A stretch of 63,332 nucleotides of DNA, the filler included, from Reclinomonas americana ATCC 50394 (lineage: Eukaryota): NCBI GenBank assembly GCA_048213135.1. It is 12 parts of 12 records of this genome, joined end to end, with 100 filler letters (N's around TTAATTAATTAA, not from the genome) between each part and the next. Parts side by side here need not be neighbours in the genome. Positions count along the whole stretch, not along the records: positions 12,774 to 28,839 come from AFZH01022777.1; 11 more parts are not named here. One strand, 5' to 3'. A program made the translations under genes and the position numbers. Position 1 is the stretch's first letter, and every line of letters starts with the position of its first letter. Below, piece after piece: positions 10,490-34,900 of the stretch. A model generated the notes under the pieces. The model did not search any database. It saw only the letters and a list, made by a program, of their open reading frames with translations, and was not told the DNA's origin.

Positions 10490-12523
10490 TTACTTGAAGC
10501 TCTTGCCGTCGAGCACCGGGCGGCCGTCAATCGGCTTGTCCCATGCCAGCATGTCCTCAATCAGAGCCTTGTCTGCGTTGTTGGCCAGGTCGGCCTTGCG
10601 CCACTCGTACAGCTCGCAGTCGTCGACCGTCTTCATGACGTCCGGCACCTCCGGGCCGCGGAACAGCCACACACCGCGAATGACCAGGTTGCCGGCCTCG
10701 CCAGTGATGAGCATGCTCGAGAAAGCATACTTGCGGCAGCCGTCGGCACGCTGGTGGAAGCCCTGCACCAGGTTGGAGGCCATGAACGGCACACTGAGCT
10801 CGTTGTTGTACTTGTAGTCGGCAAAGTGGAACGAGAAGCCCTCTGCATCAAAGTGCGACCACAGCCACGGGATGGCACCGTTGCGGGTGTCCGAGTTCGA
10901 GTACTGGCGCTTCCACTCCTCCAGGTTGAAGTTGCTCTTCGGCAGGGAGTCGAGCGGGTTCTTGCCCTTGGGAGCGTCCTCAAAGGACTCCTCCTCCTCC
11001 TCCTCAGCGTTGTGCGCAGCCGGAGCGGGGGCAGCCGGTGCCTCTTCGGGCTCCTCCTGCTTCTTGTTCTTCTTGCCACCCTCAGCCTTTGCCTTGCCAC
11101 CCTCCGCCTTCGCCTTGCCACCCTCGGCCTTGGACTTGTTGCCGCCCTCAGCCTTCTTGGCCGGCACCGGCTCCGCAGCCTGCTCGCAGAACTCAAAGGC
11201 GCCAATGACGCCAGAGACGTTGGCCTGCGACAGCACCGTCGAGAACCAGCGCGACACGTGCGGGAACTTGGCGCGCAGCGGGCGGTCCAGCACGTACTTG
11301 TACAGGCCCATCACGGAGCAGAACACCACAATGTCGGCCAGAGTGACGTGGTTGCCGACCAGGAAGGTGCGGTCCGACAGCACCGTGTTCAGGGCCTCGA
11401 GGGCGTTGAAGACGGTCTCCTTCGCCTGCAGCGCAACAAAGCAAAGCCAAATGCGTCGTCGTCAGTCATCCATGCAATAGGGGAAAGAAGACAGATGATA
11501 CGGTGGGAAAGGAGGTGGCGATGTGACGACGAACGACGACAGCAGCAGGAGCAGCAGCAACAACAAGTGGATCAGACAGATGGATCGGGTTTGCGTTCAT
11601 GATTAATCACAAGGAAATCGGCATTCGATGTTTTGCATCATCTCCGCGTGTATGCGTGCCATGCGTGTGCGTGTTCGTGCGTACGTCGCCACAGAGCAAA
11701 GGAGAAGGAGGAGAGAAGAAGACGGTGTGTGTGCGACATTACCTTCTCGGCAGCCGGGCGCTGGTAAGTGAGGAAGCCGAGGATCGGGCCGAGCCATGTG
11801 ATGGCCGCCGGCTCAATCTCGTTGCTGGCAAAGTCGAGCCACTGGTCAATGGCACCAGTCTGGTACAGCGACGAGCCGTACATGCTCTGGTTGCCGAGGC
11901 GGGCAACGTAGCGGGCAATAGCGTTGCTCTCAAAAATGGCACCCTCCGGGGTCGACAACACCGGCACCTTGCCGAGCGGGTTCATGCGCAGGAACTCCGG
12001 GGTCTACACACACAGAGAGAGAGAGAGGAGACGATCAGAGGAGGAGGAGCAGGAGGAGGAGCACGTTATTGATTAATGACTGACCTTGTTGGTGGTTCCA
12101 AAGGCGAACGGCGGCACCTCAATCTCCACATCGTTGTAGAGAGCGGTGATGAGTGCCTTGAAGGCACGCGGGTTGTTGGGGTAGGTGTAGAGCTGGAGTG
12201 CCTGTGGTTGTGGAAGAAGAACGGGAAGGGGAGGGCGCATCTCGTGAGAAGACATGTCGTCGCGTCATTCTCTTCCACTGCTCACCACACATACACACGC
12301 GCTCATACACAGTGATACAAACAATGTGGCGAGAGAGGAACGCAGAACAACAAGAAGAAGGGAGTGAGAGGTCGACGGCACGCGAAATGTGCATGCTGGC
12401 ACGCACACACACATATTCATTCACAAAGCAACGTGTTGTCCAGCATGTGCACGGGAAAAAGAGAGACAAACAGACAAGAGAGTGTACATGCAAAGCAGTG
12501 TGGTGAACAAGAGCACGCACCAT
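10490..12523 (-). CDS. EEF1G: Translation elongation factor 1B gamma; the first coding exon is the ATG alone
   Basis: GST-like N-terminus (LYTYPNNPRAFKALI, NPLGKVP, IFESNAIARY, TFLVGNHVTLADI), a Lys/Glu-rich linker and the EF1G domain (KNPLDSLPKSNFNLEEWKRQYSN, YKYNNEL, GVWLFRG, DGKSFK*). Confidence 0.97.
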
Positions 12524-12773: not shown

Positions 12774-12844
12774 TGGTGATCATCATGCAGCTGTGTTGCT
12801 GTTTGGATTAGTAAAGTTGTTGTTGCTCGAGTCAGCGGACGGCG

Positions 12845-13260
12845 CTATGTCAGCAGCTTCACCGCCGAGTTGATCAACAGAGAGGCCGCTCGCTCCACCA
12901 CCGAGTACAGACCGAGACCACCTTGCGACAGCGGGGTGTAGAGGAAGGGTGTGCCGGAGTCGTTGTTGAGGCCGATCGCGAGGCAGAGTCGGATGCTGCC
13001 GCGGATCTTGCGGTCGAATCTGGGGAGCACGTCCGGCTGAAGCTCCACGGCCGAAATGACAAAGGTGGCCTTGGTGAGGACGAAGCAGCGAACGGCATCC
13101 ACCTTCTGGAGCGGCAACAGCGACGACTGCTCGATCGGCCGCGGAGTGAAGAGCTGCTTCTCCAGCATCTCCGTCACTTGCTTCTTCGCCTCACTTGTGC
13201 GAGTCGGTGAGTAGAACGGGTAGCCAAGCCAACGATCGCACTCAGTGATCGACAGATGAC
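12845..13260 (-). mobile_element. Remnant of a non-LTR retrotransposon reverse transcriptase (last RT motif + thumb; resembles RLE-type clades)
   Basis: RWLGY (Y/WLG motif)...LLPLQKVDAVRCFVLTK...FDRKIRGSIRLCL...FLYTPLSQGGLGL. The YADD core is absent upstream and the frame stops at 12845. Confidence 0.8.
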
Positions 13261-13414
13261 ATGGCCGCGCGCGGAATACAGATCCGGCGCCGCAACGCCC
13301 CTGCTCGGTAGCCTTCTCTCTCTCTCTCTCTCCCTCTCTCGAGCTCGCTCTGTCGTCTCCATTATGCTCTCTTGCACACGCATTTGCTCTCAATGCAGCT
13401 GCAGCTGGCGCAGA

Positions 13415-13550
13415 CGTCGCGATCGATCGAGCGCGACGATGCTTCTCCCCCTCCTCCTCTCTGTTCCACACTGATCTCTCCCTCGCCTCCAGCTCCGTCG
13501 CTTAGCTCGAAATCTTTGTGAGTGTCCCGACGGACGTATCGTGTCCGTCG
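13415..13550. other. Two GC-rich inverted repeats downstream of RepHel (candidate 3' subterminal hairpins)
   Basis: 13415-13438 CGTCGCGATCGATCGAGCGCGACG is a near-perfect palindrome. 13528-13550 CGACGGAC-gtatcgt-GTCCGTCG is an 8-bp perfect stem. Confidence 0.4.
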
Positions 13551-13696
13551 CTGCGTGTCCGTTACGTTGGGAAAATAGGACAAGTAAATGGAAGGCCGAT
13601 AGGCCTACCGCGGGTCTTCAAATTCAAAGAGTGTGGAGGTACATTGTGTCTCATCATGGCGAAGTGCTGGTTGGCGTCGCGGAGTTGCGCAGTCTG

Positions 13697-16600
13697 TCAG
13701 GAGGCCTCGGTACGTGCGGGGCCATTGAGAGCTTCTAGCATCGTCATAACGGCTGACTGAATGTCCGCGCGTAGGTGCTCGAGAGAGTAGTGAGCGGACA
13801 TGGTTGCCAGTGTGGCAGCCGCCACGCTGTCGTCCATGGATGTCGCGTAGTCCATCCATAGCGGCACAGGTGTGGTTTCCATAGCCGCCGTCGTAATCGA
13901 TGGTGATGGGCGCGTGGCACTTGCGCCAGCGGCAGGATGTCGCTCGTCGGTGATCCGATCGCGAGGCCGTTGAGCAAGCCAGTTAGCAAGCTCTGAAGGC
14001 GCGTCGACACCGAGGCGCGACAGCATATCGTGGAGTGTGAACACTGCACGTGCTCGCAGTGCTCGAAGCGCAGAGCGACGACCTGCCATCTCCTTGGTGC
14101 TGAGTAGGGCACGTACCAGTGGCCACGCACTGCTCGCCGATGGGGGCGCTTCAACGGCCAACTGGTATCCATCGTCGCAGGCGTCACCGTGATCGGTCTG
14201 GACGATGTTGAGGAGAATGTCGTTCACGTCTCGCACGCGCGATAAGGCGACGTAGAGCAGGTTGGTGCGGATGACGAACAAGCCAACAGTATCTGTATAC
14301 GTGTCGGGTGCGGGAGGTACTGACGTTGAGGCGCCGCCAGTGGCAGTGGCGGACGAACGTGCGGTATTGCGCCTGCCCCTGGCCTTGGCTTCCGCGGCCG
14401 CAGCTGTTGCGCGCTTCGCAGCGTCGGCAACGGCGCGTGCGCAGTCCAGTATGTCTCTGGAAGGGAATGAAACCGCGATGCTGTCGAGTGTGAGGCCTTG
14501 GCTCTGGTGAAGTATATGATGATGTTATTTTGTTAGACGTACGTGTCGATGAAGTTGCAAGTGGTGCAAATTCACTGCTTACCTTGTGAATAGTCTGAGA
14601 GTATGCCTCCTCGAGTGGAAACATTTTCCGTGTAACTTTCTGCGGTCGATTGTCGGCTGCTTTCGTGAGTGCCTTCTTTCGTTGTTTGGTAACATCGGCG
14701 GTCAGCTGCATCGGCTCCACAAGCACGATGTTGTCGTGCAAGTACTGCGCGCGCGAGAGTGATACAAATGCATTCACTGTTAGCACGGTGAATAGTGAAG
14801 AAGCTTAAGGGGTGTGGCGAGAGTGGTTGTTACCTTGTAGTCGCCGAGTGCTCCTTGTGGTTGTCGTATGTTGTCATCCAGTCTGAGTAGTACGCCGGTG
14901 GGCATGTTGCAGTCAATGACATGTTGTGTGCTGTCGCTGGGTTGCGGCCGTTCGCCATTTGCCCACAAAACGTCGACCACTGTTCCTATGCTGCCGTTGA
15001 CAACGCCGCACTCGGCTAGGCCGTTTTGCCCATTGGTCGTTAACATCAAGCGAGCACCGCGAAACAGTATGAGCGTGTCTGGAAGTGCCGACAGTCCCTT
15101 GTAGTGTCGGCGTGACACGCTCAAGGCTGGTGCGCCTGCGCGTCTACTGACTCCTGCGCCGTCGCCGTCGCCGCGTTGAACTGCAGCTGGTGTTGTTAAC
15201 GTTGCAATTGGTGGCAGTGGTGACGGCAGTGTAGCAGCTGCTGTCGTTCTCGTTGTTGTTGTCGTTGAAGATGTTGTTGTCGGTGTCATTGTTGTTGGAG
15301 ATGTATCCGCAGCAGGTACGGAGTCCAGCGCCCGAACACGTACTGGAAGATGCTGCACATCAGCGCTGTGTAGGAGTGTTGCGTGGCGGGAGAAGTCCTC
15401 CGTTGCCGCCTTTCTCGGGAATAGGTGCATTGACCGCTTCCCCGCGATTGCCGCTCGTACTGCTTCGGAGCTTGGGTTGTAGTCGGTGGCAGCAGCGTCA
15501 GAGTGCACGTCTGTGGGACCGTTGTCGTGAAGGACTCGGAGGTTCCCTCGTTCGAAGTACAACCACAGTGACTGGAGTGATAGTCTGTTTATCACGGTCG
15601 TAATGGCGTTGGCGTCACCCGCGCACAGCTCGAACCCTGGCACGTGTACACCTCCACGCTCCGCGATTAACGTCACAACAGCCGAGTCCTTGTCTTGCAC
15701 TGAGAGTCGGTGGGAGCGCAACAGTTCGTCGTACTTGGTCTCCACAATAAACTGTGCAGCGGCGAGAGCAACAGCAGGAATGAGGGTGTGGAGCGTGTAG
15801 GTTTCGTCACTGAGTGTTGATGCTGTTTGGTCGTCCGGTACACGTTCACCACGTCTCACCAGACTCTGTACAATCCGAAACACAGCTTGCCGTACGCTCC
15901 AGTGACACGCTTGCAACAATAGTGGTGTGTTGGCGATGACTTGTGCGGTAGCGTTTCTGTGAAGTTGAACATCACGGAGTCGACTGTCCGCAGGTATACC
16001 ACCGTAATCATCGTCGCCTGCACTACGTGCCAATCGTCCCAGGTGTAGGCCGAGTTCACTGTTCGTGCTACAGTCAAGGTCGAGTGGTGGAAACTGGAAC
16101 GGGTTCCGTTGTCGCATGTTGTGTAACAGTTCAACAGTCGCACTCTGCCGAAGTTTCCGGAACAGATTGTGTCCAGCCGACGACGCTTGAGAACTCCCAG
16201 CACCAATGTTCGCAACATCGGAGTCTGGAGTTGCCTGGAAAAGTGGACGGTCGCCAATGGCCTCCAGTTGCGCAAAATCGCCGATGAGCACCACCGTGAT
16301 CCCACCAAAGGGCAGCAGATGAGCTCTGAATCGTCCACGCATGGGCAGTGGGATGTCGCTGACATGTACACCGCGACGGCGAACGAAACTGTCCGTCGAG
16401 AAGCACTGCATCACCAGATGTGCTCGCCGCTCGCAATAGTGGAGAAGAGCGGAGCCCACCATCGACATCTCATCGATCACGAGCACCCGGAGCATCTGCC
16501 ACCGTACTCTGATACGACAGAGCTGCTTCGATTCAGAAATGTCCGCTCCGACTGTGCTGGGGGAGAAGCCGAAAAACTTGTGAATCGTAGTGCCTCCGGG

Positions 16601-19600
16601 AAGCAGTTTGGCAGCCGCAGCTGTATAGGCCACCACCGCTACACTGCCTGGTCCGTAAACAGTCTCTAATAGTGACTTGACCACCGTCACTGCTGCCGTC
16701 TTCCCTGTCCCACCCTCGCCGCTGATAACCACACCGTGTCTGTGTTGGGCGAGGTGCTCATCCGCACCAACGTGCGCGTCACCCTGGAGTCGTGCGTTAC
16801 CGGCGACCACTGAGAGAACAGTGGCAACAGACACGCGTTGCATCGCCGTCAAGGAATCAATGGTTGCCCCTGAAACGGATGGTGACGGCGCCTGTGGCTC
16901 CGGCCGTGGTGGTGCTGCAGGTGCAGGTGGAAGTGGCTGTTGTTGGCGTTGTGGTTCTGTTTGCTGGTGTTTGTAATACAGGCTTTTGATCGCCTTCGTG
17001 TCCTCGGAAATCCGCGCTGCCAAGTTGACTGTTTCGGCGTTGACTCCCATTGCCAGCCACGAATGCGATGCGTCGACGACAGAAAATGGGAGGTCGGCAC
17101 CGGCATCGGTTGCCACTCCTCGCTGTCTCGGCGGCTGCTGCACTTGCGATGGATTGGTGCCGATGAACTCGATTGCCGGATCGACGTCGACGACACGGGC
17201 GAAATGACCACGCAGCTGCTTGCGCTGTTGCACCAATTCACGATACCGCTCCAGCTCGTCCTCTGAGGAGATTGCAGCCGAAGAAACCTGGTGCTCATCG
17301 CTTCCTTCCTCCTCGTCGATGTAGCCATCCACATCACCCTCTGCTCGCCGCCGCTCGTCGTCCTCACGGGCACCTCTCTCTTGCTGATTGGCGATGTGGA
17401 TTTTGAGAGCGGCAGTGTAGTCTGCCGTCATTCGATCGTGCAGTGGACGATCAATGACCTCCGCCAGCATGTTGTAGTCGACGAGCAGTACGCTGTTCTC
17501 ACTGGAGGTCACGAATGTCGTGAGCTGCTGGAGAAGCCAGTCACGCATTGCTGCTGAGTGGCCAGCAAACGCGGCGGCCTGAATGTTACTGGCAAGACTG
17601 TCGAAGTGGTACTCAGCCGGTGGAACACGAGCCGGCGCCTGTTGTTGGAACTGCAACGTCGTCGTCCACCATCCGGCGAGTGGGTCAAGTATTGACCGCC
17701 GCACAAGGTGACTCGGCCACTGCTGTGCTGGCAACAGCAGTAGAAGTGCTGACGGTGGCATGTACGAATACTCAGTGCTGCGGGAAACGTTGGCTTCGTT
17801 GTCACGGTGGCGTTGGCGTTCCTCCTGTTGACGAGCGTTGAGCACGGCCAGCAAGTTGTTCACCACGGTCGCCAGAGTACACGGCTCATGTGCATTCGGC
17901 AGCCCGTCATCGTCTCGGCTCTGGCACACGCTCGCAAACGTCGCTTGTGGCCAACAGTTCTCCAGTTCGACGCTGAGGCGTTCAACCGTAATCGCCGTGT
18001 TGACAGTCCTTCGCATCTGGTACCAGGAGGCGAACAGCTTGCACTGCTGGTACGACCAAGCATTGCTGACACCGGCGACAGAGCCGTCGGGTGCGAAGCG
18101 CAAAGGTCGGTAGGGTGGCAAGATTCGCAATATCTTGTGTGACGACGTGTCCGCGGCGAGCTTCAGTGCTCGGTACGGGCCATTCCACCGTGAAACAAAG
18201 CTGTAGAACGATGTCCATCGCGCCACATGTACAGCCGCGCCCTGCCCGTCACAATCTTGGTCGCGTTCTCTGATACCTCGTCGACTTGTTGCGTGGCCTT
18301 CGAGATACAGCTGCATCAGTGACTTGTTCGCGTGCTTCCTCGATAGCTCTCCACCTTCTCGTTGCGGCATCTCCACGTCGTCCTTGGCCATGTTGTTGCA
18401 TTCACAGTCAACAATCGAGTAGTGCCGTGCCATCAGCTGAGCCCCTGCGATGTCCAAGTGTACGGCATCGGCATTGTCGTCTCCACCACTGCCATCGACA
18501 TTGCCGGCAGGTTCAGCAGCTGCTGTCGGTGCCGCCAGCGCAGTGTCGTTGATGAAGTTGGGTTGGTGGCCGCGGACGCGTCGCACAGTATTCGTGTCGA
18601 ATCCGGCAAAGTGCAACATCAACTTCACCACTGACCGAGACGACCGCTTCATGTAATACCCGTTAATGAAGCAAACAACTTCTTGCGCACAGTAATCGCG
18701 GTCCTTAATCGTAGCGTTGTTAAAGCTCCGCTGGATTGCTGCGAGAGCGGTAGCCTGTCCAGGAGAATACGTCATCACGTGCTGCAGAGCGAGAGCGAGA
18801 AACGCTTTGGCAGATACTGACGCCTTCTCGCTTTTCATGGCATACCCGACAACGTAAACAGCGGCTCCGTAGGCAGACTGATCCAGCATAAACTGCATGT
18901 CATGGTGGGCGCCGTAAATGCTGAGGATGAGCGGGTTGTACGCGTTGACCATACACTCGGCCTCGCGTGGCCTAGGCAGCGCCACCTGGAGTGCGTTCCG
19001 GTGCTTGTGATGCGAGGTGATGGTTGCGTTCTGTTGTTGTTGACGTGGGAAGTTGAACTTGCACACTCCCCTCAGACCTCCACAGTAAGGCGTGTGACTG
19101 TGCATCTGAGTGGTCGAAACCATATCAGCCAGGTGCTGATATTCTCCGCGTGCCAAAATGTCTGGCGGAGTGCGTTCATGTGGGTGCTTTCTCGACAAGC
19201 GCACACTCTCGTCAGCCGCAGCCGTCACCACGTCATCCGGATCCAGAATGGCCACGGAATCGTCAACTGCGCTCTCCATGCCCGTTGCATCGTGAACAGT
19301 GTCGTCGATCGAGACGGCGTTGCCGGCGTGGTCGCAGCTGTCGGCGTGTACACCGTCGACGCGAGTACGGCGTGAGTGATCTTGCTGTTCCTCGCCGCAG
19401 ACCATAGACGTATCACGCGCCTCGTCTGCCTCTCGCAGCTGCAGTGCATGCGCAGCGTCGTCACCACAGTCGTGTTGCCCATCACCGTCCAGACGACAGG
19501 TACCGTCACGAACATCGGGCATGCGCATCGTCTCCTCCTCGTCAGCGCCCTCAATGACATTATGACGTCCGTCATGGAGTTGTTGGTCTGCGGTGTCATC

Positions 19601-22600
19601 ACTCGTCGGTGACATCGTCAATGTCGCTGGGACCAGTGTTGCAGATGTGCCGCTGCTGCTGCCGGACGACTCGTGTGCGCGCTCGTCGTTGCCAGCGCCC
19701 ACCAAGTCAAGGATCTCGCGATCTGGATTGAGCGTGAGGGAGACTACATGTATACAACACGTTCACATGCAAGTGCATTGATAAGTGCACAGTCGCTCTC
19801 AAAGGCTGCAGTGATGCATCGATGCACGTACCATAGTGGATGTCCGTGATGTTGGCAATACGGAGCGTTAGCAGTTGATCACCTTGAACTCCGTGGCCAC
19901 CGACGTCGTCCACATCAATCGGTGCAGCTGCCGCCACCACTCGCACTGCAGGTCGAAGTGCACGCCACGCAGGTCTAAAGTCACTTGGTTTGCTTGCGTC
20001 TACTCCGTCCAAGCCGTGTCGCACCTCAGCCGTGAGCACGAGAATGTGAACATCGAGCGCACTCGCGGCTGCCGCCACAAGAATAGCATCTCCGTCGACA
20101 CGCGGATTCGCCATGTGGTCGCAGTACTGCATGCATATATGTGAATAATAAATTACATGGTGAGAAAGAAGCACATGTTGCAGGAGGTGAGGTTTGGTGC
20201 GCACCTCGTCTATGGAATGGAATTGATTCGGATAGTGCGTAAACACCGCCTGTGTGAACGTCTGTTTCAAAATGTCACCGTCTGTGTCGCACAGCTCATG
20301 CCGGTGTTGTCGCAGCCAGCAAATCACATAGTGGCGAAGCACAACAGCGGCCAACATTGGTGGTAGATCGACAATGTTCCGGACACGCTCATCGTCAACT
20401 CCAAAGTCCGCCACATGAAGCCCAAGGTCGACACTGTCACCGTAGTCGAACTGCTGCCTGACCAACAGCTGATTCCGCAGCGCCGTGAGGACCTGGCGAC
20501 TGCACACGCCGTCCGCATCCCTGTCGAGTGGCACGCTGATCGCGCCATCGTCGGCAGGTGCGTAATAGTCGGCATAGTGAGCAAGCTGGAAAAAACACCT
20601 GTCACTGCCGTCAACAATGTCGCCGTTAACGTAGCCGCACTGCCGGAGTTGGTGGTAAATTGCAGTGAACAGACAGTTGCCACCCACGCAGCGGTCGTCG
20701 ACGGTGATGTAACCGGCATCGCGTGCCACGTAGTCGAGAGCAGCGTAAGGGTTGACCGGGTCAGGGCGTGGTGGCGGTGCCTGTGCTGCAGCAGCAGTTG
20801 CTGCAGCAAACCGAGCATGGTCAACTGCAGTCGCTCTTTCCGCATTCTGCTCCACCCACTGGCGATAGTGTTGCGCCACCATCTCGACCGACGAGTCAGG
20901 GGACGGAAAGCATGTAGTCATTCCAAGTGAGCCCATGAGGAACGAGGCAAGATTCTCACGGAGAAGCACATTGTCGTCGTGGTCATCGAGCAGTGATGTT
21001 GTTCCATCGGCAGGCTGCCGGTCTGGCACGAATGCGGGATTCAGCCACAGTAGCCCATGCAGATGCAACGCGCCTGCGCGTGTTCAAGTCAGCACATCGA
21101 GTGTGAAGTTGTGGTAAATTACAAAAGGCAACCGAACAAACCACGCTGCTGTGCTTCGAGGCGCCAGAAGTAGTCTTTCACATTGTACTCGGGAACCAAG
21201 ATGACCTCGAAAAGCGCTGCAATTCGCGCCTGCAAGAGCCGGACAGCAGCGTCTGGTTGCATGGCAAGTGATCGGTTGCGCTGCATGTTGGCAAAGTCGT
21301 AGTGCACTTCTGCGCTTGAGCCGCCAGAGAGTGGCAATGCCTTGTTCACTCGCCCTCGATCCGTCAGCATCTTCTCGAACTCTGGCCAGTTGTCCGACAG
21401 AGTGAGCGTAATGAAAAGGTGAGGAACTCCGAGAGTCGGTGACTGCATCATCGCAGTCACGTCCTCGTGTGTTTCCTTCCAAAACGCACGCGAACCGCGA
21501 ATAGGGGCAGTAAACCTGAACGCCTTTGCAGCCAGTTGAGGGTCGGCAGCCAAGGCGGCCGCGAGTTGGTCCGCCGTGGCGTCTCTTCCGAGAGCAGCGT
21601 TGGTTGACACGAAATACAGTGACTGGTTGCGAATCTTTTGACGATGTGACAAGTCAAACACGATGTAGCTGCGCATGCGCGAGCGCGCGCATCTGTGAGT
21701 CAGCAGAGAATTGGAAGGTAGAGGCTATAGCTAATCACTCACCGGAAATATGGGTGGCAGGCGAAACGCGGATGGTGAAACTGCATCAAATGCCGTCCAA
21801 ATTCGCACCATGACACATAATGTTGTCGCTCCACCATGACGTCAACGAGGACTTCTGTACCGTCATCTAGAGTCTGCTTCTGCTGCATGTTGAAATGCCT
21901 GACAGTGATATCGCCGCGGGAAGTCGGGAACAACGTAGCCAGGCACATTGTGAGCCACCCATTGACGTGGTACTCGCTCAACGGCTTCGCCCCAAGCGTT
22001 GGCGCACTCATTGTCACTATCGCTCGTCCACGGTCAACGGCGCTTGCAGCAGCGGTCGGTTGCTCATCATCTCCTCTCGTGCCATTTACACTCATAGTAA
22101 CATGGCGCCGGTAAAGCGAATGCGCATTGTCCTGAATGTGTGCGTCAAGCTGGTCGCCGACAAGTGGCAGGTCGAATTCACCACGCCCGTCACAGACGTC
22201 ACGTTCGTAAAGAGCACTCATCTCCTCTGCCTCTCGCTCACGCTCACGGATAATAGCCATGAGGTCGGCAGCCAGTTCCTTGTCAAAACCTCCATCGTCA
22301 TGTGTCGAGTAGTACAGAGCTAGCGCATCCATGTCCTCCTCTTCTCTCACAAGATCGTCACGGAATTCGTCGTACTCGTCACAAAGTTCTCTATCTCGTG
22401 CGTACCGCACTGCCTCGTCATCATCCAGATCAGCTAGAGTCGGTGGCGGCACAGCCGCTCCACACTGAGTGAGTGACACACCGAGCTGAAGCGAGGAGTG
22501 GCCAGCACCTTGATCCCCTGCTGACGCTGCAGCCGGTTGAAGGCACTCGAGGAGATGCTGAAGTGCAGCCTCTGTAGCAGCTCCTCTTCCAACACTTTCG

Positions 22601-25358
22601 CAATCACGTGTTCTCTCTGCTGGAAACCCGTCACACACATCAATGTTGTGCTGCCGCAGCACGGCGGCGACGCTAGCGTTGTCAATATCCCTCATCATTG
22701 AGATGTTGGGATCAACGATTGAAAGAGGAAAATAACTCTCCTTTTCGAGTGTCTCAGCGTCGTCAAACGTGAGCATCACTTCCTCCTCAGCACAGCGAAT
22801 GTCCGCACTGGCACACTCACTGCTGTCGTCATCACGACTGCGATCGCCACTGGCGCGGGCACCATCCGTTGCACCACTCCCATCACTGTCTGCATCACCA
22901 CTGCCGCCAGTATCATGTTCAACTGGCACAGATGGAGGTAGTTGATCGCGATTGGGATTACCCCCACTCTCGCTCGGTGCGTTGATAACGAAGTTGTCCA
23001 TCTCCTCTCGGTCCTGCACAATTCGTTGCCCAATCCCCTGTCCAACAATCAGATACCCGTTCTCTGGCAGCACGGCAAGGTTGCCCTCCGAGAGGGTAGC
23101 GTGATGCGCGCGGTAGATGGGATTGTTCGCAATCAGCCACTCCAACGCGGCCCGCACTCTCTCACGTCTCACCAGGCACCGTACTGGAGGTAGGTCATGC
23201 ACACGTTCCTGAATCACCACAAGCTCATGAACGTCACTTGGTAGCCGCGGCAAAACGTGAAACACAGTGGCACTATCGTTCCAGAAGCTGATGCTGTGAC
23301 CAGAATACGAATACTGTGACCCGCGGAGAATCTTGACCTTCACGATCCTCGCAACCATGGATATCAGCCTCTCCTCGGCCAGCGTGAGCCCCTGAAGTTC
23401 TGGCGGCACTTCGTGGTCCGGAACCATGTTGTTTTTCGGGCCAAACACATCGCGTCGTAGCGCTGGTGTGCCGTCAGGGTTGACAAGCTTCCGATGTTGC
23501 TTCTCAGATGCGCACTGCGAGCACAGTTGGACGCATACCTTGTCCGGTAATCCAGGCACCTCAGTACCGGCGTGCGACCCTTGGCCGTAAACAGTCACAT
23601 GCTGGTCCGGGCGGGGAACCATAGTTGTCAGTAATTGCATCCCATGATATTGCGCGCCTGTGCATGTACGTTTTCGTCGGTCAGACATAGACTGCAGACA
23701 TTGGCCGTCCGCATTGAATCGCGCACGAACTAACCACAGTTCCAACACGGGCAGTCGGGGAAAGCGATTCTCTTTTGCACCGCATCCAAGAACTCCAGTC
23801 TTGTGTGTTGCAGGTGTAATGCGATTGTCTCTGTTTGTTTAAGTTTCGCGCACAAGTCAGTCAATCCTCACTCAGCGGCACTACATGGGCGCCTTGTTAC
23901 TTACCGTTGAAAATCTTCTGCTGCTCAGCAGATCCATTGGCAGCATTGTTGAACGCGTACAACTCATCGTAGCGCACGCCGCACGTCGGACACTTGCCCT
24001 TCGGATCTCGCATTCCAGATCCAGCAGCACTCACACCATACCGTCGCTTGCTTGCTCGTTCATGGTCGTCTGTTACGATCACGTTAAATTTAAAGTGAGT
24101 GGTGGAGAAGAGCCGGGCAGAACTATCAAACACTTGCACGCCACACACCATTCTCGGCACCATCGTCGCCACATTCATCCAACTCTGACCGCGCACGTGT
24201 CCGTTTGTTGCCGGTCACGGTACGTGCACGTGAATCGTCTGCTGTGGCTGGCCGAGACTCAGGTGCAGAAGAGGCGACCACTGGTTGTGGTGTCGGAGTT
24301 TGTTGAGAGTCGAGTGTGCGCGCACTGGGCCGCACAACTCTGCCGCTCCTCGTACTTGTTACTGTCGGCGCAGTAACAGTTGCTGATGTGGCGGCGTCGT
24401 CGATTTCCATGCCGTCGACACGATCAACGGAACGCCGCTGCGCATGCTGCGCGTGAGCTGCCGACGCCATTAGCTCCTCTGGCATGGCGAAACCGTGACC
24501 GGCTGATGGGCCTCTCCGCAAGGCAAGCAAGCCCGATTCTTCAAAGCGACTGCGTCGCCGCCGGAAATCCGCGCTTGAAGGTTGGGCCACCAGCGGATGT
24601 GCTGAAACTTCCAGCAGCCTCCACGCATCCTCGTTGGTGGCCAGGATGGCCTCCATCTTCGTCGATCCCTCGTCGACCAGCCGAAGTGCCCTTGTCCACA
24701 GCGATTCAGCGCCGAAGCAATCGGCAAAGTCGTGGTCACTCGTCTCGTCGCTGTAGCTGCAGCACCCATGCTGCATCGCCAGCAGCCAGTTGGTGATGCT
24801 GTGGGCCGTCATTGTTGCGTTGGTAGCATCAGGGTTGATGGCCACTGCAACGCCGACATCTGCTGCACCGTCACAGACGTCAGCACATGATCCGGCGTCT
24901 CCGCACGCAGCTGACAACGCGAGGCGAGCACGATGCCAACCGGGTACTGCGAGGAGCACTGAGTGTGCCGCCGCCAAGGTGTCGTGATTGTCACGCATGT
25001 GACGGTCGTCCATACGCTGTAAGTCGTCAAGGATATCGCGCACATTATCCGTCCACGCGGCGGCGGCAGCAGCGGCTGAAGGGGTCCGTGTTGTGGAATT
25101 GCCGGCGCCGTAGCTGAAGCAGTGCGTTGACTTGTTGTACGTTGGCGACTCAGTGTTGACGAGGCACTCGGCCAGGCCGCATGCGTTGCGGCCGTCGAAT
25201 GTGGCCCACCCGCACACGATGAGCAGCATCATGCTGAGCAGTGCTCTCGCACAGACACCTCGTGCGTCGCCCGCCGCCCACGTGATGGCGTACTGCTCGA
25301 AAGGAGGGCGCGGGTGTGTGTGCCGTGCTGCGATGAACTGCGCATCACATTCACGCAC
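13697..25358 (-). CDS. Helitron Rep/helicase: CxxC fingers, DUF6570-like region, HUH Rep with inserted OTU-like domain, PIF1-family helicase; 5' end uncertain (possibly ATG 25641)
   Basis: N-terminal region: VPPELQGLTLAEERLI...GHSISF...LPRLP...VRAALEWLIANNPIY. Rep: IRGSRAFW, PHLFITLT, WRLEAQQRG/ALHLHGLLW, QMHSHTPYC...CKFNFP, NAYNPLIL...HHDMQ, YVVGYAMK, AQEV. Helicase: GEGGTGKT, LVIDEMSMV, PFGG...GDFAQL, NMRQ, VNGSIG, FPLEEAYSQTIHK/SQGLTL, YVALSRVR. GT-AG introns at 14504-14582, 14745-14833, 19744-19831, 20127-20204, 21074-21141, 21669-21742, 23658-23734, 23831-23904 and 24070-24148 give one continuous frame. Confidence 0.93.
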
Positions 25359-26702
25359 ACGGACGTTTGCGAGTGTAAGTACTGGTTGCCACCACCACTG
25401 TCAAGTGTACGCATGATGAGAGAACTCACGTCGCGAGGTCGAGCTCCGTTGCTGAGACTGGTACCAGCGACACTCTCCCCACTTGCTTCTCCATGATGAA
25501 CTGCGGTTGTCTGCATGCAAGGGTGCAGGTGAGCACTGCATGCAGGCGTGCTGGATGTGAGCTCACGAAGTTCAATATGCACACAACCTCTCGTTCACTG
25601 GCAGGTGTGGCACCGACAGCAGCATGACTGTCGAGTTCCATTGTGGCACCGGCCTGCGCGTGTTCAATGCGATATCAATCACTTCTGCCACGTACACACG
25701 GCAGTGAGCAGCGCCAGGAACACACCTCAAGCTTCCTCTAGATCTGTGTCAATATTAATCGCTGTTGTGCAAGCAGCGACAAGACGCACCTCTCTCTCTC
25801 TCTCTTTGTTAATCTGTTTTGTGTCTCGCGCCCAAAAAGGCAATGCCTGCAATTCTGTCCAACACTTCTGTGTGTGTGTCGCCGGCCGGCGCTAGCGCTG
25901 CTCGCATGTCGCACATGATCATGATGATGGGAGACACTGGATGTGAATGGATGTCGTTGGTGATGTAAGCGTCTCTGGATCTGACCAAGAGTTGACCCCC
26001 ATCGAAACGAACACGCGCACGCTAACTCCTTGTGCAATACTACTCACGCGCTCGTGAGACGTGCTGTCATGCGCGTTGACTCCTGTTCATCTGTTGCACG
26101 TTCGCTGTTGTGCACGTGGAGACACTCTTCTGCACTATGCAACGCTTGTGCGCCATTGGATGCGCCATTGGATCGAGAGAGTGGGCGATCGCGAGCGATC
26201 ACACAAAACAGGATCCGAACACAGATCACAACGCATCTTTCAACAGCACCATGCAGAGAACAACCAAGTACGTGGTGAATGGAAAATGTATGCAAATAGA
26301 AGTCGATTTCTTGTACCCGAGTGCAGTGGTTCTGCAAGAGCCGATCGCGAGAGACAATGAAAACAGCATCCATATCCGAACATGTAGCATAGTGCGAGAG
26401 AAGACATGAGGCAGTGATTGCACCAAGTCATGCATGGGAATGATCGTGATCGTGAAGTAGGAAAAGAAGTCACGTTATGTACTGAAGTGGTACTGTCTGT
26501 CGAAAAATGAGCAGAGAACGGACGAGAAAGTAAAGATAAAGTACAGCAGAGTGCGCACGAGAGCAAGGAAAAGAAGATCCGGGAGTACAGAGTGCCCACG
26601 AGAGGCACTGCTTGCAAGCGGAATCAAGGAGAGAGCAAAAAAGAAAAGACGATCTGTCGCGGCACAGCTTGCAGCCAGAAATCAGGGAGGAAGGCGATCT
26701 GA

Positions 26703-28623
26703 TCACGAGCTAGTGCGGCGCTTGCTACCCGTACCCGAACCGGTCTGCTTCGAGCCGTGGCCAGCGGGCGTGGCTGCAGCTGTCGGCGCAGCAGGTGGCG
26801 GTGCCATGGTGACGTCGGTGGTCGCAGAGGCCGGTGTCGTTGTTGCACGGATGTTGGCCTCCACAGCACTGAACGCGGCTTGAAGGTCATCTGGCCACGT
26901 GCGGACATTCGGCAGTGGTGCGGCAGCTGTGAGTACCAATTAGTAGCCACTTGTGTGCATGGGGCGATGCTGATCCTGCTGGCTTCGGGAACACGGCACC
27001 GCCATGAGCGAGACCGAAAGAGGGAGGCCTGTGAGGGCAAGCTCGGCCTTCTTGCGTCCGTCAGACGCGACAAACTGAGCAAGGCGCCGGCGATGAGTGA
27101 GATTCATCAGCAGACAACGTGCATGCAGCAGACAGACTCACCTCATCGTCCTGCCACTGATCGATTGTGAGGCCGGCAGGCAGCAGTGCGTCAATGGCGT
27201 CGTCACTGCCAACTTGAATAGCCCTTGTGAGCAGCACGACGTCACTCGACGGCTGTTGCTGCGGATCCGGCGTCGTGTCGTCGGCAAGGTGCAGATGTAG
27301 CTTGAACACAATGTGCGCTTCGTTGCCGCCGCACAGGGGGCACGAGAGCGTCACGCCAAAGGCATTGCGAGTGACTCGCATCATGTTTCTGCCACTGCAC
27401 TGAGCGCAGATTGGAGCGACTCCAAGCTTGGCGTCAACAGTGTAGCACGCAATGCTGTGGAAGGTGCTGTCGGAGGGTAGCCCTTGGAGATCGATGGCGG
27501 AGCATAGCTGCACGTGCATGCGGTGGCATATCGTTAGCATGTTTGTTTGCGTGCACACATCCGCAACAACAACAAACAGTACGTACCGTGGCGTGGATCT
27601 GCATGAGTGTGGTCCGTGGCACCGCGCTGCCCGATCCACTGGCAGCCGTGGCATCAACATCGCCTGCAGCGACGTATTCAGGTCCAAAGAGAGCCAGCAA
27701 CGCCGGCGTGATGCCCTGTGGCATTGCCAGTGGGCGTCGTCGCATCGTACTGGATGCGCCGGCATGCTGGCGGACAGCCGCGTCAGCTGGCGAGACCGTC
27801 ATGTCGTTGCGCCGTGCGATCGCGATTGGCTCCGGCTCGATCGTGGATTGACTGGCCACGAGGGCTGACGTATCAGCGACAATCCAGGCCGGCGAGCAGT
27901 GGCCCTTTCCGTCGAGGCCGCGGGACGCATCCCGGTACCTGCGCCATCGTACATATTCTTCAGTAAATAATGTCACGTGACACGCACAGACTGCGACATG
28001 GAATCCTCACCACTGCTCCAGTGCGTCCCCTCGACGACCGACTGGCGAGTCAGAAGTATGGATGTGAACCGAGGAGACTCGTGCCGTGGCAGAGAGCCGC
28101 ACTGATGAGGGAAGAGCACCGAGTGAGTACGAACCGCTGCATCATCTGGCACCTACAACATACAATGCAAACCTTTCCGAGTCTCTGGGTTCACGCTGAT
28201 CCCAATCCGAGTGATAACAAGGACGTCACCTTCTTGCAAGTGAGCGACAGCGTCGGACAGCGGCTTGAAAAGAGACACTTGAATCTGTGTATGTCATAAA
28301 TGTTAGCCACGAGCGCTGAGTGTCTAGACAGGCATGTGTGTAAGACGCACAAGCTGATGCTGGTCGTCGGCGACGTGGACCGTGCGGAAAAGCTTGCCAT
28401 TGACGGAGAGCCGTTCCTCCTCGTCGACGAAGACGATGACGCCAATCAAAGCTGGCGTCTGTTGAGCTTGGGGGATCCTCCACGTCCAGTATCCGAATGA
28501 GTCCACAGCAGCAGTGTTATGCTGCAGTGCTCTGTGGTACTCCTGAATGCCGATATCGACGAGCTCCGACACCGTCTTGCAGGCTGTCGTCCCCAGCTCG
28601 GCAACAGCATAGCGTTGAAGCAC
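26703..28623 (-). CDS. Divergent OB-fold protein with an RPA70 C-terminal-like zinc ribbon (putative ssDNA-binding protein); 5' exons lost in the gap, 3' end uncertain
   Basis: OB pattern IGVIVFVDEEERLSVNGKLFRTVHVADDQHQL/IQVSLF...LQEGDVLVITRI. A second domain reads CAQC-x16-CPLC-GGNEAHIVFKLHLHLADDT...AIDALLP. The exons have GT-AG boundaries. Confidence 0.65.
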
Positions 28624-28661
28624 CTGCGCATCGCGCTCAGCAGTAGATCGACTCAGTGAAG

Positions 28662-28663
<2 letters not shown>

Positions 28664-28744
<81 letters not shown>

Positions 28745-28779
28745 GTCGTCGTGTCGTCGTCGTCGTCGTCGTCGTCGTA

Positions 28780-28821
<42 letters not shown>

Positions 28822-28839
28822 ACGTCGTCGTCGTCGTCG
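28664..28839. repeat. (GT)n then (GTC)n microsatellite at the contig end, intronic to the OB-fold gene
   Basis: About 80 nt of GT repeats followed by an imperfect GTC run up to the gap. Confidence 0.95.
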
Positions 28840-28939: not shown

Positions 28940-31900
28940 CCTGACTCGTGCCACCCGTGATTGTGTACGTCAGTGTCTGACCCGTGTTGACATCCGTTGA
29001 CGCCAACGAGCCAATCACTCCATTCACAGCAAGTGGTGGCGTGTACGTCGACGATGACAACGTCGGTGCAGTTGGAGCCACGTTCGCTGATGCAGTCACC
29101 AACGTCAGTCAAAATGACAGACAAAAAAAGAGACGAGAAACACACACCTTCGCTGATTGTGAATGTCGCACTCGCCGTCAGGATGCCATCACTCACTTGC
29201 ACAATCACTTGCAGACTGTTACCAGTAAGGCCAGCGACATTCGATCGCAAGCTCGTTCCACTGATGTTGAATGATGATGCGTTGGAGCCGCCCGTGATCG
29301 CAAATGTCAGTGTCTGACTCGTGTTCACATCCGTCGACGACAGCGTGCCAATCACTCCGTTCACGGCGAGAGGCGGCGTGTATGCCGACAATGACAGCGT
29401 CGGTGTCGTCGGCGCCACATTGACTATCATGGCACAGCAAAGTCAGCGCGAGTTAACGCAGAACGAAGACAATGCAGCACACAACACACCTTCGCTGATC
29501 GTAAAGGTTGCACTCGCAGTGCCACCCGCTCCATCGCTCACTTGCACAGTCACTTGCAGGTTGTTGCCAATCAAGCCTGCCAGACTGGATCGCAAACTGG
29601 TACCACTGATATTAAACAATGCAGAGTCAATGCCGCCCGAGATAGCGTACGACAACGTCTGGCCCGTGTTGGGGTCGGCAGACGACAAAGTGCCAATCAC
29701 TCCATTCAGCGCAAGCGGTGGTGTGTACGTTGTCGACGACAGCGTCGGTGCAGTCGGATTCACGTTGGCTGAGACGAACACTTGTGTGAGTGACAGGGCA
29801 CACACGAATCGAACGGACAAGAAACAAAGTCATACCTTCGCTGATCGTGAATGTAGCACTCGCTGTCAGCGTTCCGTCACTGACCCGCACAATCACTTGC
29901 AGATTGTTGCCAGTGAGGCCTGCCACACTGGATTGCAAGCTGGTACCGCTGATGTTGAACGACGCCTGATTCGTACCGCCCGTGATCGTGTACGTGAGCG
30001 ACTGACCCGTGTTGGGGTCAGTTGACGCAAGCACGCCAATCACTCCATTCACGGCGAGTGGCGGCGTGTACGTCGACGACGAAAGGGTCGGTGCAGTCGG
30101 TGCCACATTGACTGTCCCAGCCAGGAATGAGAGTCGCACAGCAGATAGACCAAGAACATGACAAGGACAACAAACCTTCGCTGATCGAAAACGTCCTGCT
30201 CGCCGTCAGGGAGCCATCGCTCACTTGCACAATCACTTGCAGGCTGTTGCCAGTCAGACCAGTAACATTGGATCGCAAGCTTGTTCCGCTGATGTTGAAT
30301 GATGATGCGTTGGTGCCGCCCACAATAGTGTACGTCAGAGTCTGACCCGTGTTGACATCAGTCGACGAAAGAGTGCCAATCACTCCGTTCACGGCGAGCG
30401 GTGGCGTGTACGTCGACGAAGACAGCATCGGTGTCGTCGGTGCCACATTGACTGTCACAAAATATGATAGATTAGATGCGTACGTTACCAACAAAGAAAC
30501 GAGACAAGAAGCGCACCTTCGTTGAACGTAAACGTTGTACTCGATTGCAGAGTACCGTCACTCACTTGTACAATCACTTGCAGGTTACTACCAGTGAGAC
30601 CAGCCACATTAGACCGCAAATTCGTGCCGCTGATGTTGAACGATGCCGAGTTCGCGCCGCCCGTGATTGTGTACGCAAGTGTTTGACCCGTGTTTGGATC
30701 AGTCGACGACAATGTGCCGACCACTCCGTTCAGAGCGAGAGGAGGCGTGTATGTCGATGATGACAATGTCGGTGCAGTCGGTGTCACGTTGGCTATATGG
30801 ATTTATACAAGTCTCATGTTAGCACTGCACGTACTTGGAAAACGCAGGGACATCCCAATTGCATACCTTCGCTGATCGTGAATGTCGATGTAGCGGTCAA
30901 TGTTCCGTCGCTGACCCGCACAATCACTTGCAGGTTGTTGCCGGTGAGGCCTGCCACATTGGACTGCAGACTGATGCCGCTGATGTTGAACGACGCAGAG
31001 TTCGTGCCACCCGCGATCGTGTACGTCAACGTCTGACCCGTGTTGGGGTCGGTAGACGCCAGCGTGCCAATGACGCCGTTCAATGTAAGTGGCGGTACGT
31101 ATGTCGATGATGACAGCGTCGGTGCAGTCGGTGCCACATTGGCTGTCACACGAGTTTTTTTAAAAAAGAGTGCACGAGAGACACGCACGCAGACAACAGC
31201 ATACCTTCGTTGATCGTGAATGTCGTGCTCGCAGTGCCGCCTGCGCCATCGCTCACTTGCACAGTCACTTGCAGGCTATTGCCAGTCAGACCAGCCACAC
31301 TTGACCGCAAACTGGTGCCGCTGATGTTGAACGACGCCTGATTCGTGCCGCCCGTGATCGTATACGTCATGGTTTGACCCGTATTGACGTCGGTCGACGC
31401 CAGAGTACCAATCACTCCATTCAGTGCAAGCGGCGGAGTGTATGCTGATGAAGACAGGGTCGGTGCGGTCGGTGGCACATTGACTAATGTGCTCGATCGC
31501 GTAAGTTGCACGGCCCAAACAAACAAATGGTACAACTAACTTATCAAACCTTCGCTGATCGTAAGCGTGGCGCTTGCCGTCAGGGTTCCGTCGCTGACAC
31601 GCACAATCACTTGCAGACCACTGCCAGTGAGGCCAGCCACATTCGAGCGCAAACTAGTGCCGCTGATATTGAACGACGCTGCGTTGGCGCCGCCCGTGAT
31701 CGTGTACGTCAGCGTCTGGCCCGTGTTGGGGTCGTTTGAAGCCAGCGTGCCAATCACTCCATTCAATGCAAGTGGTGACATGTACGTCGTCGACGACAGC
31801 GTCGGTGCAGTGGGTGCCACATTGACTGACGACAACGGAAGTTCAGTACACAGAGAAGAAGAGAAAACATGGAACGAAAGAGAGAGAGCATGAGCGATTC

Positions 31901-34900
31901 GGCAAACCTTCGCTCAGCGAAAATGTGGAACTTATCGCGCCGCCCCGGGAATCGATCACTTGGACAGTCACTTGTAAGTTGTTGCCAGTGAGACCAGCCA
32001 CATTCGACTGCAGGCTGCTGCCACTGATGTTGAATGACGCTTGATTCGTGCCGCCGGTGATCGCATACGTAAACGTTTCACCCGAATTCGCATCAGTAGC
32101 CGACAGTGTACCAATCACTCCGTTCAACACAAGTGGCGGCGTGTACGTCGATGACGACAGAATCAGCGCGGTCGGCGCGACATTGACTGCACACACAAAT
32201 TAGTAACTACAGAAACAGCGAATACGTTGTCGATGAATTTCAAACCTTCGCTTATTGTGAACGAGGTATTCGCCGTACCACCAGCTCCATCGCTCACTTG
32301 CACAGTCACTTGCAGATTGTTACCAGTGAGGCCAGCAATGCTCGATCGTAGACTTGTACCGCTGATATTGAAAGACGCTGCATTGGCGCCACCCGTGATC
32401 GTGTACGTCAGTGTCTGGCCCGCATCTGGATCGCTCGCTGAAAGCGTGCCAATCACTCCATTCAGAGCGAGCGGCGGAGTGTACATGCTACTCGACAACA
32501 TTGGTGCCGACGGACTCGTGTTTGCCCCTTAGCAATCAAGGAACAAAGATATCAGCTTCGAACGGTGCTGTAACCACAAAATCTGCGTTTGCAACATACC
32601 TTCGTTGATTGTGAATGTCGAGCTCGCAGTGCCACCTGCTCCATCGCTCACTTGCACAGTCACTTGCAAACCATTGCCAGTGAGGCCAGCCACATTCGAC
32701 CGCAGACTGGTACCGCTAATGTTGAATGACGAGGCATTCACGCCACCCGTGATCGCGTACGTCAGCGTCTGACCCGTGTTCGTGTCCGTCGCCGACAACG
32801 TGCCAATCGCTCCATTCAAAATAAGCGGTGGAGCATATGTCGTCGACGACAAGGTCGGCGCGGTCGGTGCCACATTGACTGCGACAGGCAACCAACTACT
32901 GAGATGCGAATGTGGAAAACAGAGACAATTAGCATGAGACATACCTTCGATGATCGTGAAAGTCGTGCTTGCCGTGCCGCCTGCTCCATCGCTCACTTGA
33001 ACAATCACTTGAAGACTGCTACCATTAAGGCCAGCAACATTCGATCGCAAACTGGTTCCACTAATGTTGAACCAGGCTGGATTCGTGCCACCAGTGATTG
33101 TGTACGAGAGTACCTGGCCGGTGTTCACGTCGGTTGACGACAGCGTTCCGATCACTCCATTCAAAGCCAAAGGCGGTGTGTATGTTGTCGATGACAAAGT
33201 TGGCGCAGTCGGAATGACGTTGGCTAACGATGCCTACCGAATGAGTTGCACAAGAAAAACACATATCATCCCTCACGGAATCTCACGTACCTTCGTTGAT
33301 GGTGAAGGTTGTCGTTGCCGTCAACGTTCCGTCACTGACGCGTACAATCACTTGCAGACCACTGCCGGTGAGACCAGCCACACTCGATCGCAGACTGGTA
33401 CCGCTGATATTGAATGAAGCCGAGTTGGTGCCACCCGTGATCGTGTACGTCAGTGTCTGACCCGTGTTCACGTCGGTTGACGACAATGTGCCGATCACTC
33501 CATTCAGCGCAAGTGGTGGCGTGTACGTTGTCGACGACAGCGTCGGTGCAGTTGGCGCCACATTCGCTGACCCAGACACCCACGTCAGTCAAACGACAGA
33601 CAAATCAAGGAACTCAGATAGCTACACACCTTCGCTGATTGTGAATGTCGTGCTTGCCGTGCCGCCAGCGCCATCGCTCACTTGCACAATCACTTGCAGG
33701 TTGTTGCCAGTGAGGCCGGCAATGTTGGATCGCAAGCTTGTTCCGCTGATGTTGAACGACGNNNNNNNNNNNNNNNNNNNNNNNNNNNNNNNNNNNNNNN
33801 NNNNNTTAATTAATTAANNNNNNNNNNNNNNNNNNNNNNNNNNNNNNNNNNNNNNNNNNNNGCCACATTCGAGCGCAGACTCGTGCCACTGATGTTGAAC
33901 GAAGCAGAGTTCGTACCGCCCGTGATCGTGTACGTGAGCGACTGACCCGTGTTGGGGTCAGTTGATGCTAGCACGCCAATCGCTCCATTCACGGCGAGTG
34001 GCGGCGTATACGTCGACGACGAAAGGGTCGGTGCAGTCGGTGCCACATTGACTGTCCCAGGTAGTGAAATGAGAGTCGCACAGCAGATAGACCAAGAACA
34101 TGACAAGGACAACAAACCTTCGCTGATCGAAAACGTCCTGCTCGCCGTCAGGGAGCCATCGCTCACTTGCACAATCACTTGCAGGCTGTTGCCAGTCAGA
34201 CCAGTAACATTGGACCGCAAGCTTGCTCCACTGATGTTGAATGATGATGCGTTGGTGCCGCCCACAATAGTGAACGTGAGCGTCTGACCGGTGTTGACGT
34301 CCGTCGACGCCAACGAGCCAATCACTCCGTTCACGGCGAGCGGTGGCGTGTACGTCGACGAAGACAGCGTCGGTGTCGTCGGTGCCACATTGACTGTCAC
34401 AAGCAAATGATAGGTGAGATACAAGCGAGACGAATACAAAGAACGACGAAAGAAACACACTTTCGCTGATCGAGAATGTCGTGCTTGCCGTGCCGCCAGC
34501 TCCATCGCTCACTTGCACAATCACTTGCAGGTTATTGCCAGTGAGGCCAGAGACATTAGACCGCAAATTCGTGCCGCTGATGTTGAACGATGCCGAGTTC
34601 GTGCCGCCCGTGATCGTGTACGTGAGTGTTTGACCCGTGTTCACGTCAGTTGACGACAATGTGCCGACCACTCCGTTCAGAGCGAGAGGAGGCGTGTATG
34701 TCGATGATGACAATGTCGGTGCAGTCGGTGTCACGTTGGCTACGTGAATTCACACCAGTCTTATGTTAGCACTGCATGTACTTGGAAAACGCAGGGACAT
34801 CTCAATTGCATACCTTCGCTGATCGTGAATGTCGATGTAGCGGTCAATATTCCGTCGCTGACCCGCACAATCACTTGCAGGTTGTTGCCGGTGAGGCCAG

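Follow-up and report, generated by a model that had tools for sequence, protein, structure and literature searches.

OTU-type protease domains have long been known from Helitron-lineage elements (PMC4067079, PMC2836005 and PMC5148889, in the text available). In HELIANO, the captured domains described in the text all lie upstream or downstream of the RepHel transposase, with the OTU upstream (PMC11417382). Helitron VTD domains are active K48/K63 deubiquitinases, for which a role in keeping transposition proteins from proteasomal degradation has been proposed; as of that account, the activity of transposon OTUs had yet to be assayed (PMC9741609, available sections). The literature search, whose scope lay outside Repbase, the main reviews and the Helraiser structure paper, returned no report of an OTU within a Rep nuclease in the text it reached, and the accessible part of PMC13085455 makes no mention of OTU. 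More generally, transposons repeatedly capture ubiquitin and SUMO proteases.

The window analyzed here is a stretch of 63,332 nucleotides from Reclinomonas americana ATCC 50394, in which an earlier note had placed an OTU-like cysteine protease inside a Helitron-type HUH Rep nuclease. The locus lies on one contig (G000:C7310, window 12774-28839) of the 108 Mb assembly of this intron-bearing eukaryote, which comprises 16,441 contigs. DNA past the N spacers belongs to other contigs. This other DNA includes, on the minus strand, an elongation factor 1 gamma gene (GST_C plus EF1G) at 10490-12160 in the neighboring contig and, at 28941-32500, an extended array in which each exon encodes one Ig/cadherin-like repeat of ~100 aa.

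The element and its transposase gene

Splicing of the RepHel gene was modeled from GT-AG boundaries, intron size, composition and reading frame, and is to be read as a prediction from sequence. Excision of four putative introns (21742-21669, 21141-21074, 20204-20127 and 19831-19744) leaves 2,916 stop-free codons. With 14833-14745 and 14582-14504 also removed, the model reaches 3,221 codons and gains the late helicase motifs TIHKSQG and YVALSR, which follow these two introns. The introns measure 68-89 nt, with a GC content below that of the exons in all except the first (55%). Pfam recovers DUF6570, Helitron_like_N and PIF1 in this order (Table 1). In the DUF6570 region, comparison with a sister element over 145 codons gave a dS of 2.15 and a dN of 0.24. 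The model stops ~200 aa past the last helicase motif, and its start codon is expected further upstream than 23838. Beyond it, window 24126-25400 (minus strand) holds a 424-codon frame with no significant Pfam match, kept in the sister element as 37-62% identical pieces, which may be a gene of its own or supply the N-terminal exon(s) of RepHel. The upstream gene(s) at 26700-28680 have 43-57% identical counterparts in the sister (C2147). They carry a CxxC..CxxC motif and may be RPA/OB-fold-like, an identity for which neither Pfam nor Atlas gave confirmation.

Table 1. Features of the element, with positions in the window
Feature	Position	Strand	Basis or remark
RepHel transposase gene model	13697..23838	-	3,221 stop-free codons, 6 GT-AG introns removed
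Upstream gene(s) within the element, CxxC..CxxC motif, intron-containing	26700..28680	-	also L255 (C7311)
DUF6570 region (HLE2-associated)	23012..23448	-	Pfam PF20209, E 7.4e-23
Rep N-half (Helitron_like_N, motif I to HUH strand), model 612-886	21039..22005	-	PF14214, E 5.5e-21; Rep profile, E 1.2e-26
Intron, 74 nt	21669..21742	-	GT-AG model
Intron, 68 nt, within motif II (RG/ALHLH)	21074..21141	-	GT-AG model
HUH motif His878-Leu-His880	21057..21065	-	Rep profile, gene model
Linker A, ~109 aa, Ala/Pro-rich run at end	20718..21038	-	gene model
OTU domain, model 994-1266, two introns inside	19733..20717	-	OTU profile, aligned blocks, fold search
Catalytic Cys1008 in GGNCLF, Gly at -3	20673..20675	-	Cys-block matrix
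~94-aa insertion inside OTU, between Cys helix and LR helix	20352..20633	-	low model confidence
Arg1121 of LR helix	20334..20336	-	R in 29/30 references
Intron, 78 nt, in frame, no stop, GC 42%, inside OTU	20127..20204	-	GT-AG model
Asp1175 at aromatic position	20094..20096	-	aromatic in all 29 small-OTU references that have a residue at this point
Catalytic His1261 (HYVSL after splicing; His+2 = Val)	19836..19838	-	OTU blocks
Intron, 88 nt, GT..AG, dividing HY/VSL	19744..19831	-	gene model
Linker B, 198 aa, acidic (23% D/E)	19139..19732	-	gene model
Rep C-half, QMHSH/CKFNFP block and motif III, model 1465-1638	18617..19138	-	Rep profile, E 3.8e-19
Motif III Tyr1559 and Tyr1563 (YVVGYAMK)	18842..18856	-	Rep profile, gene model
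PIF1 helicase core	16259..16738	-	PF05970, E 3.5e-15; Walker A GEGGTGKT at 16720
3' terminus	13580..13621	-	subterminal inverted repeat TTGAAGACCC 13621-13612; hairpin AGGCC-TATC-GGCCT 13606-13593; end CTTG/T

The termini are shared with other sequences in the genome. The final ~110-125 nt before 13580 are found at six further loci with the identical end base and different flanks, and a seventh genomic locus carries this 3' end in slightly shortened form. Three of the loci with a matching 3' end are members of a non-autonomous HLE2 family, ~3 kb long and bearing tandem repeats of 73 bp, whose copies are 87-90% identical and have both ends in common with the query element (L179:6763-9924, L181, L184 and L250-L251; G000 contigs C160, C5277, C150 and C5870-C5872). 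The 5' end of this family reads TT(G/A)TTAAGGGTCTTCAA, and the reverse complement of its core gives the 3' subterminal TTGAAGACCC; the query's own subterminal repeat is likewise the reverse complement of the 5' end. The 5' word GGGTCTTCAA, present in the non-autonomous copies and in contig C7311, occurs six times in the genome, against none for a control word. Its copy in C7311 lies on the correct strand, and C7311 ends in the same simple repeats as C7310. On the grounds of contig numbering, strand and these matching repeats, it is probably the query element's own 5' end, which would give an element of ~17 kb. Among occupied ends, a T follows all 7 complete 3' ends and TT starts all 5 of the 5' ends. 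A separate repeat (window 12828-13548, 84% identical to L169) starts ~30 nt beyond the element's 3' end.

HUH motif, two tyrosines and PIF1 helicase are combined in one protein, and the asymmetric terminal inverted repeat and 3' hairpin agree with the terminal structure of HLE2 elements in the available descriptions (PMC5148889, PMC11417382). DUF6570 is described there as almost exclusive to HLE2 (PMC11417382); together with the best helicase matches, it points to this class. A strict-sense Helentron was rejected, as no AP endonuclease was matched by Pfam in the C-terminal frames. The coding part of RepHel is single-copy in searches of the genome, apart from the sister HLE2 without a Rep core (L246-L247; G000 C2146-C2147), which has the same 5' end and a 41% identical N-terminal protein. 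This sister is uninformative on the ancestry of the OTU because it is deleted from the first modeled intron position onward, where a copy of the upstream gene follows. The query is apparently an intact, autonomous HLE2 (Helitron2-type) rolling-circle element.

The segment between Rep motifs II and III

A Rep profile built from four full-length HLE proteins (P0001-P0004) matches the model in two separate parts and nothing in between (Table 1). The second HUH histidine is 679 residues from the first tyrosine of motif III, and ~580 residues are inserted in the Rep, of which the OTU accounts for ~270 and linkers of 109 and 198 aa for the remainder. The second of these linkers is probably disordered. 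The frame stays open across the 579 inserted codons, which are interrupted by two host-style introns; codon use at both catalytic blocks (Cys and His) resembles that of the Rep. This stop-free model, with Rep profile halves on both flanks, supports the in-frame fusion between motifs II and III that the earlier note had described.

The OTU motifs quoted in that note also lie on the minus strand where it had placed them (Cys1008 at 20675-20673, LRHYVICWL at 20339, YCDHM at 20126 and His1261 at 19838-19836), and the 88-nt GT..AG intron 19831-19744 joins HY to VSL as it had claimed. Homology was assessed with a profile built from 30 OTU sequences, of which 6 come from Helitrons, 3 from the host and 21 from viral contigs; the query was excluded, as were 9 probable animal-virus rows. 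The spliced insert scored 30.7 bits (E 1.6e-11, as a single target), against 3.8 bits for the best of 1,000 shuffles (473 reported) and -1.7 for the reversed sequence, and its proposed OTU identity is thereby upheld on an independent profile. Across 2,916 positions, the best-scoring site for each of three blocks (Cys, GD-helix and His) is the proposed residue. Cys1008 scores 28.7 against -0.8 for the next site; the margin of the His block is small (11.9 versus 11.1), and the LR block falls outside its top four sites. Alignment with 25 OTUs places the four blocks in matching order, from the Cys loop through the LR helix and the conserved helix to the His strand, and excising intron 20204-20127 lifts the OTU core score from 14.5 to 18.9 bits. 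Identity to the references is 16-28%, and a tree of 26 sequences and 120 columns places the query beside the host OTUs L161 and L163 at only 48% support.

Pfam PF02338, the family named in the earlier note, scores above its threshold when the frame is left unspliced (E 8.4e-6). The best-matching stretch (147-232), however, begins far downstream of the catalytic Cys and crosses the intron, which makes the hit weaker evidence than the E-value suggests. The top Atlas matches are OTU clusters, under the recognition threshold of that resource; an hhalign comparison against alignment A4 was weak (probability 29%), and neither the OTU exons nor the Rep exons had a significant sequence match in the PDB. 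An AlphaFold2 model from a 26-row OTU alignment has a mean pLDDT of 65, with core blocks at 81-90, compared with 39 for a single-sequence model. In a wide search of 48,161 chains, OTU-type structures filled the first 32 rows, the best with a Z of 10.1 and an rmsd of 2.3 across 122 residues; Foldseek returned no match at E<=0.001, and its top rows were otubains (E 0.02-0.1). The wide search points to an OTU fold, with some circularity, since OTU sequences made up the alignment behind the model. Taken together, the insert almost certainly holds a real OTU domain, and this domain is probably present in the main transposase protein.

The position of OTU domains among relatives

A motif-II pattern scan of metagenomes yielded at least 120 loci, and 93 of those listed match the Rep N-half profile (E<1e-5). 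The pattern is blind to elements with an intron in motif II, the query included, so that close relatives would escape the survey. Among the matches listed, HUH and motif III are 50-268 residues apart (median 156) in all 34 measurable loci, the other 59 being too short, broken or devoid of an in-frame motif III; the distance is 130-259 in the four HLE proteins. This segment is thus naturally length-variable, and the query is 2.5 times the longest measured among the matches listed. An OTU was found in 11 of the 93 listed loci, upstream in 2 and ~1,030-1,110 residues downstream of motif II, the helicase-end distance, in 9 (L056, L058, L076, L042, L047, L072, L083, L107 and L113). Six of these nine come from one assembly, and in three (L056, L058 and L076) the OTU is in the same open frame. 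An OTU inside the Rep was seen in none of the 93 listed loci. The survey also contained a divergent Rep group with the pattern Y..R.EFQ.RGT.HLH (L048, L059, L073, L074, L099, L053 and L065), apparently without the Cys/His block; its motif III lies 50-102 residues past HUH where measurable (L048, L053, L059, L074 and L099).

A phmmer search for HUH plus OTU among 1.84 billion representatives had 0 matches, word-based protein searches returned no match for either half of the Rep, and the helicase search retrieved only 4 proteins. No loci were returned by the HLE alignment in viral contigs or by the query in metagenomes. Viral motif-II patterns gave 35 loci, none with a Rep-profile match, and another pattern gave 0 loci. 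No relative with the query's OTU-in-Rep layout was found among the surveyed loci and protein searches. The novelty of position that the earlier note had suspected holds for the 93 listed loci and for the literature text searched: the OTU accessory itself is known, and its place within the Rep of an intact HLE2 transposase makes a real domain arrangement that is apparently undescribed.

Active site, candidate roles and comparison with known systems

The catalytic Cys1008, His1261 and LR-helix Arg1121 are all kept, and three supporting positions deviate. The earlier note had recorded the first, with Cys and His intact: Cys-3 is Gly in the query and Asp in 27 of 30 references. His+2 is Val, a position held by Asn, Asp or Glu in 19 of the 27 references with a residue there and by Val in 2. 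Finally, Asp1175 replaces the conserved aromatic (W in 20 references, Y in 5, F in 3 and H in 1). According to the available text of PMC7396840, His+2 is usually the third triad residue, and mutating the aromatic that holds the ubiquitin Gly-Gly abolishes activity in wMelOTU. Each deviation has a precedent. GGNCLF is shared by a pair of intact HLE OTUs on which purifying selection acts (L056/L058; dN 0.10, dS 0.80), the host OTU L163 also ends in HYVSL, and a host otubain, aligned without a gap in this register, has Glu at the aromatic site. In A20-type OTUs, the acid at His+2 is missing and one before the Cys takes its place (PMC7396840, available text); in the query, Asp1000 and Asp1001 precede Cys1008 in sequence. 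Because three supporting residues deviate together, though each with precedent, the predicted catalytic activity of the OTU is evenly balanced between presence and loss.

The best explanation is that an HLE2 transposase captured an OTU domain into the length-variable segment just after the HUH strand. Typical OTU domains have adjacent N- and C-termini (PMC7396840, available text); with termini this close and linkers of the predicted lengths, the Rep halves could still fold together, with the OTU as a tethered bead. The domain would act as a Cys-His deubiquitinase, possibly weak or altered in specificity, and would strip ubiquitin from the transposase itself or from nearby proteins, slowing the destruction of the transposase. 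This removal would take place when the transposase is free and perhaps also when it is covalently bound to DNA. Its job is probably the one that OTU/VTD domains perform at either terminus of other HLE2 proteins, and the novelty lies in the site. We give about an even chance to this reading, in which the deubiquitinase is tethered by long linkers within a variable loop and protects the transposase from degradation.

The main competitor is a captured OTU that is tolerated in a permissive loop as a pseudo-enzyme or passenger, its protease activity lost, and that at most binds ubiquitin. The three deviant residues, two large internal insertions and the lack of a close relative among the 1.84 billion representatives would fit such decay, but Cys, His and Arg have been kept despite an overall identity of 16-28% to the references, Gly at -3 is maintained under selection in other HLE OTUs, and the A20-type OTUs and the host otubain accommodate the other two changes. 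This alternative is possible but doubtful.

A narrower form of the tethered-deubiquitinase reading, which extends a proposal of the earlier note, would have the active enzyme remove ubiquitin in cis from the covalent Tyr-DNA intermediate and shield it from proteasome- or SPRTN-type crosslink repair, possibly under the control of splicing. DNA-protein crosslinks carry a ubiquitin mark, and SPRTN can be drawn to an HUH-DNA adduct (10.64898/2026.01.09.698661, available text). Position alone does not aim the protease at the phosphotyrosine site, because the linkers are long and a terminal OTU could reach it equally. This form is considered unlikely.

Regulated skipping of the OTU cassette, which would give a working transposase and leave the OTU form as a minor or inhibitory isoform, is improbable. 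A GTGAG donor at 20959, in the same phase as the 19831 donor, could be joined to the acceptor at 19744 and would remove 1,216 nt with the frame kept; yet the insert region holds 7 donor-like words, so that one in phase is expected by chance, and the cassette is open with two introns of its own. Self-processing, the other role raised in the earlier note, fares still less well. The OTU would cut the HUH half from the tyrosine half, ending activity or releasing parts. Processing by Helitron OTUs has been suggested (PMC4067079, available text), and loss of the Gly-Gly-holding aromatic could mean a different substrate, but a cut within the insert would split the nuclease active site by parting the HUH histidines from the tyrosines, and LxGG sites number 2 in the whole model (1.07 expected) and none in the insert. 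A nested insertion or misassembly, in which a dead Helitron was disrupted by the arrival of an unrelated OTU sequence, could draw on the single-copy element, the fragmented assembly and the non-coding insert at a similar place in one listed locus (L084), but is very improbable given a frame continuous over both junctions, intact Rep and helicase motifs throughout, and an OTU segment without another copy in the genome.

Since end truncation cannot shed an OTU flanked by nuclease halves, a Cys-to-Ala test in cis would be clean. The locus further suggests that a Helitron Rep tolerates a whole domain with linkers after the HUH strand, which is relevant to engineering, and annotation is affected because Rep profiles see split halves only. 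The weight of the case is limited to that of one orphan element with an atypical active site.

Compared with described HLE2 (Helitron2/Helentron) RepHel proteins with OTU, the query has the same DUF6570, Helitron_like_N, HUH, two tyrosines, PIF1 and element-borne OTU, together with the asymmetric terminal inverted repeat, 3' hairpin and a possible T/T-like target. It differs in having the OTU between motifs II and III, whereas the OTU lies upstream of RepHel in the available text of PMC11417382 and after the helicase in 9 of the 11 OTU-bearing loci among the matches listed. Helraiser (HLE1, PDB 7LCC) shares the HUH and YxxxY layout and the PIF1 helicase, and the HLE profile matches it. Its H595 and Y727 are 132 aa apart (PMC4778049, available text), against 679 residues in the query, and its canonical 5'-TC and 3'-CTRR ends are absent from the query element. 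In Helitron VTD deubiquitinases, a ubiquitin-type protease is also fused to the transposase, but with another fold and, in P0003, at the N-terminus; Ginger1 transposases carry a fused OTU or Ulp1 at the C-terminus (PMC2836005, available text).

At the level of the protease, the query shares the Cys loop, LR helix, GD helix and His strand with small OTU deubiquitinases (PF02338; OTUD1/3, yeast Otu2) and the host OTUs L161/L163, and OTUD3 is its best structural match (Z 10.1). The host set comprises L163, the near-identical pair L161/L162 and an otubain in two copies (L256-L261 set). One host gene, the HYVSL bearer, presumably has a CAP-Gly-like motif upstream. In otubains (PF10275), too, the stretch from Cys helix to LR helix is enlarged into a long lobe, which measures 88 aa in the host protein, and the aromatic position is taken by an acid. 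Otubain membership was rejected on a core z of 0.4, against 4.6-4.7 for small OTUs, and no PF10275 match, with one otubain compared; the ~94-aa insertion resembles the otubain lobe in place and not detectably in sequence, as 149 of 2,000 shuffles score as high. Relative to small OTUs, the query is set apart by this insertion after the Cys helix, which brings the Cys-to-Arg distance to 113 aa against 17-30 in 29 references, by a longer loop before the His strand, and by Gly, Asp and Val at the three supporting positions.
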